Of a stretch of 64,000 bases of DNA, positions 1 to 37,099 are shown piece by piece. The stretch's first letter is position 1; each line of letters starts with the position of its first letter. The stretch comes from Eubacteriales bacterium (GTDB lineage Bacteria; Bacillota; Clostridia; Oscillospirales; CAG-272): NCBI GenBank assembly GCA_045577755.1, contig JAZNJA010000252.1, forward strand, positions 14,271 to 78,270, in the 5' to 3' direction. The position numbers and the translations under genes were made by a program. The notes under the pieces are model-generated. The model searched no databases. It saw only the letters and a list, made by a program, of their open reading frames with translations, and was not told the origin of the DNA.

Positions 1-445
1 TCTCCACACGGAAGGCGAAGTACTCGTCCTTGGTGATGGGGGACTTGAGCTTCAGCTCGTCGGCGTTCTCCTTGTAGCGGGCGAACATATATCCGTCGGC
101 ATAGCCGCTGTCCTCGTAGATCATGGTGAAGGTACCGCCCGAGGTGATGGATACCTCGGACTCCTCCAGGTAGATGAAGGAATCATTGCTGTCGATGGCC
201 GTCAGCTTGGCCACGCCCTTCTGGTCATAGGTCGCGCCGCCGATATCCATTTTCATGATCATGGTCTGCTCCATGGTGAAGGAGAAGGCGGTATCGGCCT
301 TTTGGTTGGACATCTCGAAGAGCTTGACGGCGCGGTCGGGCTCATCCATGCGGTTGAGTCTTGCGGCGGGGGAGCAGGAGGACAGGGGGAGGGCCGCGGA
401 CAGCAGAAGGGCGGCGGTAAGAACCAGGGTCAGGATTCGTTTCAT
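1..445 (-). CDS. Secreted lipoprotein, tandem-paralog family member 1 (3' end beyond window)
   Basis: Absent from the ORF track because there is no stop in the window. Minus-strand ATG at 443-445 behind an AAGGAGA RBS. My translation starts MKRILTLVLTAALLLSAALPLSSCSPAARLNRMDEPD (signal peptide plus lipobox). It contains SGYADGYMF, the motif shared with the next two genes. Confidence 0.75.
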   Translation of the reverse strand, partial: MKRILTLVLTAALLLSAALPLSSCSPAARLNRMDEPDRAVKLFEMSNQKADTAFSFTMEQTMIMKMDIGGATYDQKGVAKLTAIDSNDSFIYLEESEVSITSGGTFTMIYEDSGYADGYMFARYKENADELKLKSPITKDEYFAFRVE

Positions 446-9986: not shown

Positions 9987-10023
9987 AAAGGATACCTGCT
10001 TTTCGCGGGTATCCTTTTTTTTT
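9987..10023 (+). terminator. Intrinsic terminator of the multi-OB lipoprotein gene
   Basis: 10-bp stem GGATACCTGC / GCGGGTATCC (9990-9999 / 10005-10014) followed by nine T. Confidence 0.85.
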
Positions 10024-10358
10024 CAAATTTGGGTTTATCGGTGGGTTGCCACGTCCTTTGCCTTCTCCAGCGGAGAAGGGGGACCGCGAAGCGGTGGATG
10101 AGGAGAGCATTTGTAACCCAACTTATTGGGATTACAATTACGTTCCTACAACCATACGGATATGCTCGCCAAAATGGTTGATACAACTGTATTTTTGAGG
10201 TTTCTGAAATCCGAAAAGCGGTAGGAAAGTTAGCTGCTCACCCGGAACGCTGGCCTACAAGTGCTCTCCTCATCCACCGCTTCGCGGTCCCCCGCATCCG
10301 CACGCGGATGGCACCGCATGGGGAAGGCAAGGGAACGGACCGATAAACTGCAATTTCT
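10023..10358. repeat. Repeat-family copy A (long inverted-repeat type)
   Basis: Termini TCAAATTTGGGTTTATCGGTG (10023-) and ACCGATAAACTGCAATTT (-10356). Perfect 32-bp inverted repeat GGGGGACCGCGAAGCGGTGGATGAGGAGAGCA at 10078-10109 / 10262-10293 around a 152-bp AT-richer centre. Arms carry short GC hairpins (CCTTCTCC-AGC-GGAGAAGG, CCGC-GAA-GCGG). Confidence 0.8.
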
Positions 10359-14834: not shown

Positions 14835-15119
14835 ATAGTTGAGGTCAAATTTGGGTTTGGCGGTGGGTTTGTTAACCGAAACAAGGATAAAACCGCTATG
14901 CACGCGTACTCCTTCACCCGCCTGCGGGCGGGAGCTCCCTCCCGGAGGGAGCCTTAGGAGCGCGGGGCAAAATCACTTGTCGGATAACGAATTTCCGCGG
15001 GTCTGGGCAAAAGGCTCCCTCTCCGAGGGGGCTCCCGCGAAGCGGGTGGGGGAGTCATCACGAGAAGTGAGGCACTCTTTTCTGTCAGCCCGATAAACCC
15101 CAATATGAATCTCAACTAT
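14835..15119. repeat. Repeat-family copy B (long inverted-repeat type)
   Basis: Termini ATAGTTGAGGTCAAATTTGGGTTTGGCGGTG (14835-) and GCCCGATAAACCCCAATATGAATCTCAACTAT (-15119). Arms about 14911-14953 / 15013-15056 with hairpins CCCGCC-TGCG-GGCGGG, CTCCCTC-CCG-GAGGGAG, CCCGC-GAA-GCGGG. Core CCGCGAAGCGG(G)TGG shared with copy A. Confidence 0.8.
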
Positions 15120-22649: not shown

Positions 22650-22916
22650 GAAAATTTGGGCTTGTCGGTAAGATCTTATCTCGCGCGAAGCGCATATCGA
22701 GTCCCGCAGGGACATATCGAATGCCGTAAGGCATATATCGAGTCCCGCAGGGACATATCGACATACGACCTTTTGTCGATATACCCCCTTTGGGAGTTCG
22801 ATATGCCTTTGGCTCGATATGCCGCTCTCGCGGCTCGATATGCCGCTCTCGCGGCTCGATATGCCGCTCTCGCGGCTCGATATGCACCCTTCGGATGCGG
22901 GATAAACCCAAATTCA
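22650..22916. repeat. Repeat-family copy C (hairpin-array type, ATATCGA/TCGATAT heptamers)
   Basis: Termini TGAAAATTTGGGCTTGTCGGT (22650-) and CGGGATAAACCCAAATTCA (-22916). Four [hairpin + ATATCGA] units (heptamers at 22694, 22714, 22735, 22755), centre 22762-22775, six [TCGATAT + hairpin] units (22776, 22798, 22814, 22835, 22856, 22877). Confidence 0.85.
22814..22876. repeat. Perfect 3 x 21-bp tandem repeat inside copy C
   Basis: TCGATATGCCGCTCTCGCGGC at 22814-22834, 22835-22855 and 22856-22876. It translates as the artefactual HIEPRER x3 in the track ORF. Confidence 0.95.
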
Positions 22917-34571: not shown

Positions 34572-35672
34572 TCAGCTCTCAAAGACTCCGTGGGGTGCGG
34601 CGGGATCCATGGGGGCGGGGCGCTCATAGGTGGATTCCAGATTCAGGAACCCACCGTCCTTGAAGGCGCGCTCAAAGCCCGTAAGGATCTCCAGAACGTG
34701 GAGGGTCTGCTTGTAGGAGGCGCGGGGATCGCGGCCGCTCTCCAGGGCGGCGGCCATGTCAGCCAGACCCAGGGCGCGGGAATTCTCGGTGTAATCAAAG
34801 GCCAGGGGGATCTCTCTTTCTCCGCCCTCGGGAGTGTACATCCAGACGTGACCGCCGAAGCCGTTGGGATCGGGGACACGGATGGTGCCGTTCGTGCCAT
34901 AGATCTCGATGGTGGGCAGATGGGCCATGTAGACGTCGAAGGATGTGGTGATGGACCCCACCACGCCCGAGTCGAATTCCAGTATGCCGTAATAGGAGGT
35001 GGGTACCTCTACCTCGATGACCTCGCCGAAATGCTCCTTGCATCCCGCCACGCGCTTTTTCTGGGGAATGGAGACCATACCGCCCAGGCGCTTGACTCCG
35101 CCCAGAAGATTGATCAGCGCTGTGACGTAGTAGGGACCCATATCCATCATGGGGCCGCCACCGTACTTGTAGAAGAACTCGGGATCGGGATGCCAGCCCT
35201 CGGGGCCGCGGCTCATGAGGAAGGCAGTGGCGCCCGCGACGTCACCGATGGCGCCCTCGTCGATGAGCTTACGGCAGGTCTGGATGCCCGCGCCCAGGAA
35301 GGTATCGGGAGCGCCGCCGATCATGAGGCCCTTTTCCTCGGCCAGCTTGACCAGCTCCGCGCCCTCCTCCCAGGACGCGCCCAGGGGCTTTTCGGAATAG
35401 ACGTGCTTCCCTGCCAGGAGAGCCGCCTTAGTGACGTCGTAATGCTGGTAGGGGCGGGTGAGGTTGAGGACGATATCCACCTCGGGGTCGGCGAAGAGCT
35501 CGTACATATCCTCGTAGAGCTTGGGGATACCGTACTCCTTGACGGCGTTCTCAGCACGCTCGCGGATGAGGTCGCAGACACCGATGACCTCGATGTTTTG
35601 GAACAGGGTGGTGATGTTCTTCAGATAGATGCCGGAAATGCAACCGACACCAACAATACCGATCTTTTTCAT
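34572..35672 (-). CDS. Gfo/Idh/MocA family NAD(P)-dependent oxidoreductase
   Basis: Track ORF 34572-35966 trimmed to ATG 35670-35672 (MKKIGIVGVGCISGIY Rossmann start, AGGAGA RBS); upstream codons read through a repeat element. EKP motif (VYSEKPLG). Confidence 0.9.
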   Translation of the reverse strand: MKKIGIVGVGCISGIYLKNITTLFQNIEVIGVCDLIRERAENAVKEYGIPKLYEDMYELFADPEVDIVLNLTRPYQHYDVTKAALLAGKHVYSEKPLGASWEEGAELVKLAEEKGLMIGGAPDTFLGAGIQTCRKLIDEGAIGDVAGATAFLMSRGPEGWHPDPEFFYKYGGGPMMDMGPYYVTALINLLGGVKRLGGMVSIPQKKRVAGCKEHFGEVIEVEVPTSYYGILEFDSGVVGSITTSFDVYMAHLPTIEIYGTNGTIRVPDPNGFGGHVWMYTPEGGEREIPLAFDYTENSRALGLADMAAALESGRDPRASYKQTLHVLEILTGFERAFKDGGFLNLESTYERPAPMDPAAPHGVFES

Positions 35673-35716
35673 AGTCGTTTCTCCTTGTCTGTTCGTGGTT
35701 TGGCGTGTAGGGTGCT

Positions 35717-35965
35717 TCAAATTTGGGTTTGGCGGTGTGTTCTTGCGCCAAAGGCGCATATCGAGCCGCGAAAGCGGCATATCGAGCCGAAGGCCCATGC
35801 CGGAGGCATATCGAACACCCGAAGGGTGTATATCGACAAAAACTCCGGGTCGATATGTCCCTTCGGGACTCGATATGTGCCTTGTAGCACTCGATATATC
35901 CCTTCGGGATTCGATATGCCCCCTGCGGGGGCGTGACGGGCTTCGCCCGATAAACCCCAATTTCA
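35717..35965. repeat. Repeat-family copy D (hairpin-array type, ATATCGA/TCGATAT heptamers)
   Basis: Termini TCAAATTTGGGTTTGGCGGTG (35717-) and CCCGATAAACCCCAATTTCA (-35965). ATATCGA at 35758, 35779, 35808, 35830; centre 35837-35849; TCGATAT at 35850, 35870, 35891, 35911. Every inter-heptamer segment is self-complementary. Confidence 0.85.
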
Positions 35966-37099
35966 CTCTTCCTCGATCTTAACGTCGATCCCATTGACCT
36001 CCACGCCACTGTCCGCGCGGATGAGGACGTATTTGACACCGTCGATGATGCGAGTCTCCACAAGATCGGTGCGGGCGGGATTACATTTGATGACTACATC
36101 GGGGGTGCGGACCTCGAATTTCCCGGTTTCCACGATATTGCGGGGGGACAGGGCGGCGTTCTGACCGAAGCCCTTATCGAACTTCTCCTCGAAACGCTCG
36201 ATATTCTCCTCGGGGACACCACAGAAGCCCAACATATCGCGGATGACGTACTTATCCACCACCAAGGGCTCGGGTTCCTTGGAAATTTTGTGATCCTCCA
36301 TAGCCTGGTGGAGCTGGGCGTGGACCGAGCGTACCATGGGCAGGGAGCAGGCCTCCCCCGTGGCATCGGCCAGGACTGAGCGGAAGGTCTCCTTTTGCTC
36401 TGTGGCGGGCATGGGCAGCTCCCCCGCGTTGAAAATGGCGTCGGTGAACTCCTTGTGGCTGTTATCGGTGGCTCTGGTGTAGTACAGAGCACCGTAGAGA
36501 TTGGTAGAGCGGTTATCAAAGGCCGGGAACATGAAGCCCAGGGCGGGGGGCGAGATCACCGAGTCGGCCACCACGTTTCGGAAGCAGTTTTCCCGCACGT
36601 AGTAGCTGAGAGTAGGCTTCGCCATCTTGATGGGGCAGACGCAGCAAAGGATATAGCGGAACAGCTCGGAGGATTCGTCATCCTTGGCACCGTCCTTCCG
36701 ATAGGTAAAGACGTCGTAGGAGTCATAGGCCAAAAGGATCATGTAGTTCCCTTCCAGCCGGAGGGAGTCGATGATCTTTTGATAGAAGGCATGGATCAGG
36801 TCGTTGTCCCGGAGGGCTGTCTCGCGGAGATTGCAGAGGAGCTTATGCTCGGGGGACTCCATGACCTGTTGCGTGGAAAAATGGATGTCGAGCAGGTTGG
36901 TGTCCACCTTACCCGACAGGGTCTTTTTCAGGAGGGACAGGACCTCGTCGGTCTCGGTCTCGCTCATAAGGGCAACGGACTGGTCCAACTCGGAGATGAT
37001 CTCCCGCTTTTCGTTGACGTAGGCGCCGCGGATGCGGCTGATGCTGGTCTTGTCCGCGCGGAAGCGGCGTCGCAGCTCGGCGATTTCTTTATCGTTCAT
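35963..37099 (-). CDS. DUF4317 domain-containing protein
   Basis: Trimmed to ATG 37097-37099 (MNDKEIAELRRRFRADKTSISRIRGAYVNEKREII...LLKKTLSGK). This N-terminus is characteristic of the clostridial DUF4317 family as I remember it. Promoter TTTACA-17-TATAAT upstream. Confidence 0.72.
   Translation of the reverse strand: MNDKEIAELRRRFRADKTSISRIRGAYVNEKREIISELDQSVALMSETETDEVLSLLKKTLSGKVDTNLLDIHFSTQQVMESPEHKLLCNLRETALRDNDLIHAFYQKIIDSLRLEGNYMILLAYDSYDVFTYRKDGAKDDESSELFRYILCCVCPIKMAKPTLSYYVRENCFRNVVADSVISPPALGFMFPAFDNRSTNLYGALYYTRATDNSHKEFTDAIFNAGELPMPATEQKETFRSVLADATGEACSLPMVRSVHAQLHQAMEDHKISKEPEPLVVDKYVIRDMLGFCGVPEENIERFEEKFDKGFGQNAALSPRNIVETGKFEVRTPDVVIKCNPARTDLVETRIIDGVKYVLIRADSGVEVNGIDVKIEEE

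Follow-up and report, generated by a model that had tools for sequence, protein, structure and literature searches.

What is the 249-bp mirror-symmetric sequence that separates two genes in a Clostridia genome? We analyzed a 64-kb stretch of DNA from a Eubacteriales bacterium (the window; 64,000 nucleotides of contig JAZNJA010000252.1, assembly GCA_045577755.1), in which this sequence, here called element D, occupies positions 35717-35965. An initial annotation of the window had described D as an array of small hairpins punctuated by heptamers, probably transcribed between its neighbors and matching none of the known repeats that it considered. We found that D belongs to a multi-copy family with a conserved terminal inverted repeat (TIR), mirrored arms, and a hairpin rule with compensatory variation, that its repeat units are associated with genes of the protein family PF05635, and that it is kin to the Rfam motif Gut-1. 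On the strength of these sequence comparisons, the best reading of D is that of a TIR-capped but gene-less relative of PF05635 gene cassettes that resemble the intervening sequences (IVS) of 23S rRNA genes.

Element D is a structured, non-coding palindrome

D reads base for base as first described, with four units, a 13-nt centre, four mirrored units, and two termini, and all the stem-loop segments listed in the initial annotation were found in it. Its features are as follows.

35717-35737, unstranded: left TIR ("T-end"), TCAAATTTGGGTTTGGCGGTG, parsed as TC-AAATTTGGGTTTGGCGG-TG
35745-35836, unstranded: left arm, four units of mini-hairpin plus ATATCGA
35745-57, 35765-78, 35786-807, 35815-29: hairpins of the left arm
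35758, 35779, 35808, 35830: ATATCGA heptamers of the left arm
35837-35849, unstranded: 13-nt centre, CAAAAACTCCGGG, at which the heptamer orientation flips
35850-35932, unstranded: right arm, four units of TCGATAT plus mini-hairpin (heptamers at 35850, 35870, 35891, and 35911)
35937-35949, unstranded: subterminal hairpin CGGGC-TTC-GCCCG, abutting the right TIR
35946-35965, unstranded: right TIR ("G-end"), CCCGATAAACCCCAATTTCA, parsed as CCCGATAAACCCCAATTT-CA; its last bases are the TGA of the DUF4317 gene on the minus strand

On the strand shown, the loops of the left arm are AAA, GAAA, and GAA, and the third hairpin segment, GCCGAAGGCCCATGCCGGAGGC, is double or imperfect. A subterminal hairpin beside the TIR was also present at L034, L080, and L249 (L numbers designate loci on other contigs).

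The designation "copy D" in the initial annotation proved right, since four elements of the window have a common 17-nt TIR, AAATTTGGGTTT(AT/GG)CGG. The left-TIR 17-mer of D recurs exactly at 14847, and its counterparts at 10025 and 22652 each differ from it by 2 mismatches. The three sister copies are the following.

10023-10358, unstranded: copy A, common TIR; interior unlike C and D yet mirror-symmetric
14845-15109, unstranded: copy B, common TIR; interior unlike C and D yet mirror-symmetric
22650-22916, unstranded: copy C, common TIR; four ATATCGA and six TCGATAT units

We counted 27 occurrences of the heptamer ATATCGA/TCGATAT in the window, where 5.2 ± 2.3 would be expected and none of 100 shuffles had as many; 18 of the 27 fall in the two arrays of copies C and D. 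When folded, D was far more stable than its dinucleotide shuffles (z = -6.3 as RNA, z = -7.4 as DNA), with a predicted fold of -119 kcal/mol for the minus-strand RNA. The only open reading frames (ORFs) that cross D prolong the Gfo/Idh/MocA frame in the upstream direction, and the Pfam domain of that 366-aa protein begins at residue 3. We thus judged D to be non-coding, as the initial annotation had done for want of a credible coding frame. D is a real, non-coding, and highly structured sequence that lies far from chance.

A strict hairpin rule with compensatory variation

The repeat units of C and D are 20 to 21 bp long and consist of a perfect 4- to 7-bp mini-hairpin followed by ATATCGA. To describe the rule beyond D, we collected the spacers between heptamers from C, D, and 12 other arrays (54 of the spacer sequences were distinct). 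Of 63 such spacers, 58 were spanned by a perfect stem 4 bp or longer, compared to 4.7% of shuffled spacers. In an alignment of all 14 distinct 15-nt spacers, which had not been filtered for pairing, 98.8% of cells were paired, versus 58% in shuffles. Furthermore, among these same-length spacers, 39 cells had changed on both sides versus 12.6 in shuffles. None of 500 shuffles reached these values. Each hairpin is strictly maintained although its sequence may vary freely, a rule stringent enough for the design of binding or structure experiments.

On the ATATCGA strand, most loops are of the types GAA, GCA, and GNNA. The first loop base is G in 68% of hairpins and the last is A in 76%, and a C-G pair closes the loop in 75%. 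In DNA, C-GNA-G and C-GNNA-G loops have unusual stability, and in RNA the stable loops include the complementary UUCG type and GNRA. The bias in the loops thus makes each unit polar, without deciding between DNA and RNA as the relevant form.

D belongs to a dispersed family bounded by a common TIR

To find relatives of D, we scanned one genome per species for the TIR pattern. By our own calculation, about 555 chance matches were expected, so we treated matches outside Clostridia as noise. The remaining matches came from metagenome-assembled genomes (MAGs) of Clostridia, Eubacteriales, Acutalibacteraceae, and Faecousia, often on several contigs of one MAG and often at contig ends. We assembled first 45 and later at least 51 distinct TIR-paired elements of 140 to 520 bp, from genomes of 41 to 64% GC. 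Their termini are conserved, with the consensus TTC|AAATTTGGGTTTaTCGG (17 to 21 nt, (TTC)AAATT[T/G]GGGTTTATCGG), and their interiors are extremely diverse, modular, and always palindromic. D itself is 85% identical over 156 nt to the elements at L034 and L064, and 71.5% identical over its full length to that at L080. Homologous elements are found in many independent assemblies and studies, and the notion of an RNA element tied to this locus gave way to that of a dispersed, TIR-bounded family of which D is a member.

We then asked whether the two TIR ends are selected as the strands of an RNA stem. They do not covary, with 679 matches between ends against 699 ± 7 on permutation, and we rejected this possibility. 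Position 6 of the TIR is anti-correlated: 40 of 58 elements combine a T at one end with a G at the opposite end, and this difference gives the element a polarity. Among oriented elements, TTC precedes the T-end in at least 70% (~26/34), and GAA follows the G-end in ~13/34. The two TIRs of an element thus act like slightly different sites for a protein or for recombination, and not like the strands of a selected RNA stem. The T-end stands at the low coordinate in A, B, and D, and elements are co-oriented on most multi-copy contigs, L070 and L121 being exceptions; GC skew across the window is not monotonic. We found no match to D in plasmids. Of the viral contigs, only two had real TIR pairs and two had ATATCGA arrays, so the element is not phage-specific.

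Two of the copies in the window, A and B, combine the common TIR with an interior without heptamers and are placed after terminators and between convergent genes. In copy C, three identical tandem 21-bp units, TCGATATGCCGCTCTCGCGGC, occupy positions 22814-22883, which points to recent slippage of units. In copy A, the arms correspond to mirrored versions of a two-hairpin module located immediately upstream of a DUF559 (PF04480) gene at L337 (1790-1862), with an alignment score of 41 compared to 26 for the best of 200 shuffles. Likewise, the arms of copy B match a two-hairpin module immediately upstream of a DUF559 gene at L044 (~260-370, minus strand), with a score of 52 compared to 32 for the best of 200 shuffles. 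In both cases the differences between arm and module are compensatory within hairpins. From these alignments, TIR elements seem to have interiors made of leader modules that belong to small, multi-copy genes and are present as mirrored copies. The endonuclease-like DUF559 could be a further small selfish gene in this repeat system or even the nuclease involved.

Other family members vary the layout. The element at L249 (7146-7460) has another linker, GTGAAGY plus a hairpin, and that at L004 (3059-3253) has tandem AATGAAT; each end of these two is a complete mini-palindrome (TIR, 2 to 4 nt, inverted TIR), as if the element had been inserted in the loop of a minimal TIR hairpin. Many TIR elements contain doublets resembling REP/REPIN sequences (GTAGGGG plus hairpin ... 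hairpin plus CCCCTAC), for example, at L052 (3594-3752), L096 (1039-1266), and L112 (3661-3818).

Elements turn over at identical sites

Relatives of the studied genome carry DUF4317 in other gene orders, and we found no clean empty site for D by synteny, so empty and occupied sites could be compared at other sites only. One such site lies downstream of the gene for the DUF4317 protein P0020, which is identical among contigs. This site is empty in L109 and L113 and filled in L110 and L112, and the elements of L110 and L112 have equal flanks and unrelated interiors. At the site upstream of the P0020 gene, L109/L111, L110, and L121 have one and the same right flank and carry three different interiors. 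Different interiors were also found at an orthologous site in two species-level genomes (L037 and L096). Since site occupancy differs among strains with an identical flanking protein, elements turn over at the DNA level at identical sites between near-identical strains.

Two loci showed further rearrangement. L113 (2150-2420) and L109 (2140-2420) share an identical interior and right flank and differ in the left TIR variant; the left-hand gene encodes an ABC transporter in L113 and a Gfo/Idh/MocA protein in L109, which indicates a rearrangement in L113 with its breakpoint in the element. In L112, a 439-aa Cas12f1-like/TnpB gene (PF07282; 539-1858) stands at the site upstream of the P0020 gene that holds a TIR element in sister strains, of which CCCAAATTT is the only remnant. 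It is accompanied by an array like those of clustered regularly interspaced short palindromic repeats (CRISPR) at ~2030-2400, with at least 5 copies of GTCGCAATTCGCGCTTGTGGCTGTGGTGCAAG and spacers of ~30 to 36 nt.

All-against-all clustering of 1,013 ORFs near TIRs revealed no recurrent protein family beside them. A 1.7-kb TIR pair at L102 was examined as a parent element and rejected, as it is a chance match inside mreD/PBP2 genes. The unpaired TIRs at L007, L021, L058, L073, L085, and L086 were also discarded as parents, since their partners are degenerate or missing and none has a transposase.

The repeat units of D accompany PF05635 genes

The initial annotation had suggested a search across genomes for the heptamer grammar. 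Our metagenome scan for three spaced ATATCGA heptamers yielded 120 matches; most were unrelated tandem repeats, and ~10 contigs displayed the hairpin grammar, without the AAATTTGGG TIR. Their arms stand in the opposite order, [TCGATAT arm][ATATCGA arm], which is a circular permutation of D. At L156 and L157, the arrays lie directly upstream of a gene of the "23S_rRNA_IVP" family PF05635, which encodes a four-helix bundle. Heptamer arrays adjoined a PF05635 gene in 14 of the 14 independent contexts that we examined (L156, L157, L337, L338, L339/340, L341-344, L345-348, L349-351, L352, L061, L113, and L357-364). The PF05635 protein matches PDB entry 2RLD (E = 2e-21), and the family has been reported as Avd-like (PMC10053308).

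The layout at L345, L349, and L352 is [R-arm][L-arm], ribosome-binding site (RBS), ATG, gene, [R-arm], so that the PF05635 gene stands between ATATCGA and TCGATAT arms in the same convergent order as in D. Moreover, the first right-arm unit of D, TCGATATGTCCCTTCGGGACTCGATATG, is identical at 28 of 28 positions to a unit around the PF05635 gene in L349-L351. Other PF05635 clades have other heptamers, namely GTGAAAT (L338) and TGATATA (L339), and L061 and L357-364 have contiguous AATGCGT or AATTCGG heptamers without hairpins. In MAG JAZQHZ01, the TIR element at L056 and the PF05635 cassette at L061 both use AATGCGT, and at L357-L359 the number of heptamers varies between strains that carry an identical protein. 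No PF05635 gene is present within the 64-kb window; the link to this family, missing from the initial annotation, was not visible from the window alone. None of the papers found that mention PF05635 describes flanking arrays.

We also noted that at L357-L359, L360-L362, and L363-L364, the PF05635 genes are wedged among housekeeping or toxin-type genes (asd-dapA; HipA_C-Fic) and bracketed by inverted heptamer runs (AATGCGT...ACGCATT; AATTCGG...CCGAATT) that overlap the upstream stop codon. At L149, a [TCGATAT arm][ATATCGA arm] module is repeated before successive small genes (734-910 and 1325-1500), each module ending in ATATCGAC plus RBS and ATG; the contig is phage-like (an HTH_39 gene and small ORFs), and the arrangement is like that of a cassette array.

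D is a diverged relative of the Rfam motif Gut-1

The initial annotation could match D to no known family. This held at the gathering score, at which an Rfam scan of the whole 64-kb window returned no family and no rRNA, and D is likewise not a REP/BIME, ERIC, BOX, RUP, CRISPR, or riboswitch sequence in the strict sense. It did not hold for the grammar, which has a described relative. A scan at the E-value level gave just sub-threshold matches to Gut-1 (RF01706) and spurious microRNA matches. D scored 19.0 and 18.2 bits against Gut-1 (the second match at 35868-35943; gathering score, 50), copy C scored 20.2 bits, and L149 scored 30.4 and 29.1 bits, all below threshold. Arrays upstream of PF05635 genes exceeded the gathering score, with 72.9 and 69.4 bits at L338 and 60.5 bits at L339. 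At 18 to 19 bits, D is thus a diverged relative of Gut-1 and not a member of the Rfam family.

Gut-1 has been listed as a probable non-coding RNA, known from human-gut sequence only and without further comment, and was judged to be an RNA from covariation (Weinberg et al. 2010, PMC2864571). Its consensus has three hairpins separated by GUGAAAU, and its seed shows the full mirrored layout, with GUGAUAU/AUAUCAC. D and Gut-1 alike consist of at least 3 short variable hairpins split by a conserved heptamer, and both come from gut Clostridia-type metagenomes. Their linkers differ, since UCGAUAU of D has GAUAU alone in common with GUGAUAU/GUGAAAU of Gut-1. Furthermore, Gut-1 as described is a free-standing small RNA with one arm, for which a TIR, a palindromic and dispersed nature, and a PF05635 link are unreported. 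Literature searches by sequence string and by taxon plus miniature inverted-repeat transposable element (MITE) retrieved nothing relevant, and we found no paper linking Gut-1, PF05635 genes, and dispersed palindromic repeats.

Comparison with known mobile and repeated elements

The IVS of 23S rRNA genes in Coxiella and Leptospira are described as selfish DNA in which terminal inverted repeats pair into a stem that encloses an S23p (PF05635) ORF; the stems are cut by RNase III, and the origin and mobility of IVS are unresolved (PMC4990558). D-like elements and IVS share terminal inverted repeats, a long stem, the association with PF05635, and the existence of gene-less forms; D itself has no ORF, and its repeat units flank or lead PF05635 genes elsewhere. 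However, D sits between protein-coding genes and not in helix 9, 25, or 45 of 23S rRNA, as an IVS does, and its arms are arrays of hairpins and heptamers whereas the IVS has a simple stem.

Bacterial MITEs and mosaic palindromes (Correia, RUP, bcr1, REP/BIME/REPIN, and neisserial NIME) are small, non-coding, intergenic, and multi-copy. Repeats of the MITE type have terminal inverted repeats, strain-level presence or absence, and modular interiors, and often lie in 3' untranslated regions or between cistrons. D resembles them in its small size, its lack of coding capacity, and TIRs common to many copies, and its family shows insertion polymorphism between close relatives. The D family departs from bacterial MITEs in that interiors are far more diverse than termini and whole interiors are swapped at a fixed site. 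No parent insertion sequence was found for the family among the matches listed, and no RAYT gene at any locus examined. Some sister elements carry GTAGGG-hairpin doublets, but D lacks the GTAG-type head that marks REP/BIME/REPIN. The Foldback transposons of eukaryotes have long inverted arms made of tandem short sub-repeats in variable number; the likeness is an analogy only, as D is from another host domain, has no known transposase, and has hairpins as sub-repeats. Altogether, the D family behaves like a MITE or foldback element of gut Clostridia.

Genes and predicted transcription at the D locus

Two genes flank D.

34572-35672, minus strand: downstream gene, Gfo/Idh/MocA oxidoreductase, 366 aa; its ATG lies 44 nt past D
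35963-37099, minus strand: upstream gene, DUF4317 family, 378 aa (Pfam PF14199, E = 5e-128)

Both genes are on the minus strand, so that D fills the gap between two co-directional genes, as the initial annotation had stated. The TGA of DUF4317, at 35963-35965, overlaps the G-end TIR of D; the C-terminus ...KIEEE is the native end in 35 of 120 homologues. An exact look-up of the Gfo/Idh/MocA protein of the window returned no record. No sigma-70-like promoter was predicted in 35400-36300, in agreement with the earlier statement that none precedes the downstream gene, and the only intrinsic terminator predicted in this interval was one terminator-like site within the DUF4317 gene. With neither a promoter nor a terminator predicted between the co-directional genes, co-transcription is plausible, and D is probably co-transcribed between the DUF4317 and Gfo/Idh/MocA genes.

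C and D are placed alike. In C, the G-end overlaps the TGA of a NusG_II-domain gene, and in both copies this TGA belongs to the upstream minus-strand gene (22914-22916 and 35963-35965), with the flanks GCGTGA|ATTTGGG in C and GAGTGA|AATTGGGG in D. The opposite ends of C and D stand 40 to 44 nt from the next start codon.

Weighing the explanations of D

We regard D as probably, if by no means surely, a gene-less, TIR-capped palindromic repeat of MITE/IVS-like type whose arms are diverged Gut-1-type arrays of hairpins and heptamers. Several observations weigh against this. Among the matches listed (108 genome loci, 45 viral loci, and unpaired TIRs), there was neither an autonomous copy with a transposase between TIRs nor a candidate mobilising enzyme. 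No consistent direct repeat (target-site duplication) was found outside the TIR, although the AAATT of the TIR is itself part of a palindrome and cannot be distinguished from such a duplication. The comparison of L109 with L110 showed no clean excision footprint, the occupied allele having ~23 extra nt on each side. The TIR is conserved over genomes of 41 to 64% GC, and elements occupy orthologous sites across species, which could mean a host function rather than pure selfishness. The PF05635 loci lack the AAATTTGGG TIR, so that the descent of D from a gene cassette is an inference from shared units and not a demonstrated lineage. Finally, the arrays at L352 and L345 are directly preceded by good promoter matches and are thus predicted 5' leaders there, leaving room for a function as RNA.

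Such a function would make D a cis-acting intercistronic RNA, a hairpin ladder or long imperfect duplex that is processed (e.g., by RNase III) or protects the 3' end of the upstream mRNA, with the effect of uncoupling the expression of DUF4317 and Gfo/Idh/MocA. The predicted lack of a promoter or terminator between the genes, the stable minus-strand fold, the position of C and D directly after a stop codon and shortly before the next start, and the leader position of arrays before PF05635 genes are all consistent with it, as are the covariation from which Gut-1 was judged an RNA (PMC2864571) and the cleavage of IVS stems by RNase III (PMC4990558). However, the element is symmetric, with equal features on both strands and no strand preference, its copies A and B lie after terminators and between convergent genes, and among strains whose flanking proteins are identical, the element is missing or has an unrelated interior. 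Covariation is absent between the TIR ends, and in the hairpins it is expected equally for DNA hairpins or palindromes. We consider an RNA function of this kind unlikely. We give even less credence to D as a multi-site target ("orphan" operator or decoy) of a sequence-specific protein, most likely the PF05635 protein of the same genome, which would recognise heptamers spaced about two helical turns apart or exposed between extruded hairpins. The 20- to 21-bp period, the adjacency to PF05635 genes in every context examined, the Avd-like nature and PDB match of the protein, and the equal heptamer of L056 and L061 in one MAG all suit such binding, as does the change of heptamer with PF05635 clade (ATATCGA, GTGAAAT, TGATATA, AATGCGT, and AATTCGG), but this correlation may merely reflect shared ancestry. 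Binding would leave perfect hairpins of free sequence unexplained as spacers, the window holds no PF05635 gene, and copies A and B have the same TIR and no heptamers. Palindromes do break assemblies, and L034 and L064 end inside such an element; yet the independent copies, including those with which D aligns at 85% and 71.5% identity, refute an assembly artefact. They equally refute a CRISPR-like array, for which repeats of 23 to 50 bp, unique spacers of about the same length, and cas genes would be typical: the repeat of D has 7 nt, is mirrored, and is separated by "spacers" that are 9- to 22-nt hairpins, and no Cas-like gene adjoins the heptamer arrays at the loci examined, the Cas12f1-like gene of L112 being next to an unrelated array of 32-nt repeats. 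We therefore attach practically no probability to either.

If D is a TIR-capped mobile repeat, its TIR would be the presumed cis site of a putative trans-acting protein, and the element would spread or be exchanged as DNA via its TIRs. This might proceed through transposition or site-specific recombination by a putative TIR-recognising enzyme or, alternatively, through recombination that targets structures in single strands or through template switching from one copy to another, and the arrays would grow by unit slippage. D would be passively co-transcribed, and the resulting stable intercistronic RNA structure may serve as a site of processing or stabilisation rather than as a dedicated regulator.

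Significance for IVS, Gut-1, and gut Clostridia genomes

A more far-reaching scheme, which we offer tentatively and deem improbable, is that PF05635 proteins are the trans-acting partners of the arrays, each clade recognising its own heptamer as displayed between mini-hairpins of DNA or RNA. The gene with its arrays would then be a selfish cassette without a transposase, and D and Gut-1 would be gene-less palindromic derivatives that are spread and exchanged via the conserved TIR. If true, this would answer the question, posed since 1993, of what S23p proteins and IVS elements are, and the mobile elements concerned would form a class of their own that is new.

The family also constitutes a large unannotated group of repeats in gut Clostridia that breaks short-read assemblies, marks points of rearrangement, as in L113, and overlaps stop codons and leaders of ordinary genes, with consequences for the quality of MAGs, the typing of strains, and the prediction of operons. 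Gut-1, a motif of unknown function from human-gut metagenomes, gains a context in gut Clostridia genomes, a two-arm palindromic form, a nature as dispersed repeats, and a constant PF05635 partner, and is linked to what is probably selfish DNA. The IVS/S23p system becomes testable outside rRNA; the inverted repeats flanking PF05635 genes and the IVS may be one kind of element. An orphan Rfam motif and the IVS/S23p puzzle are thereby given a common, testable framework.

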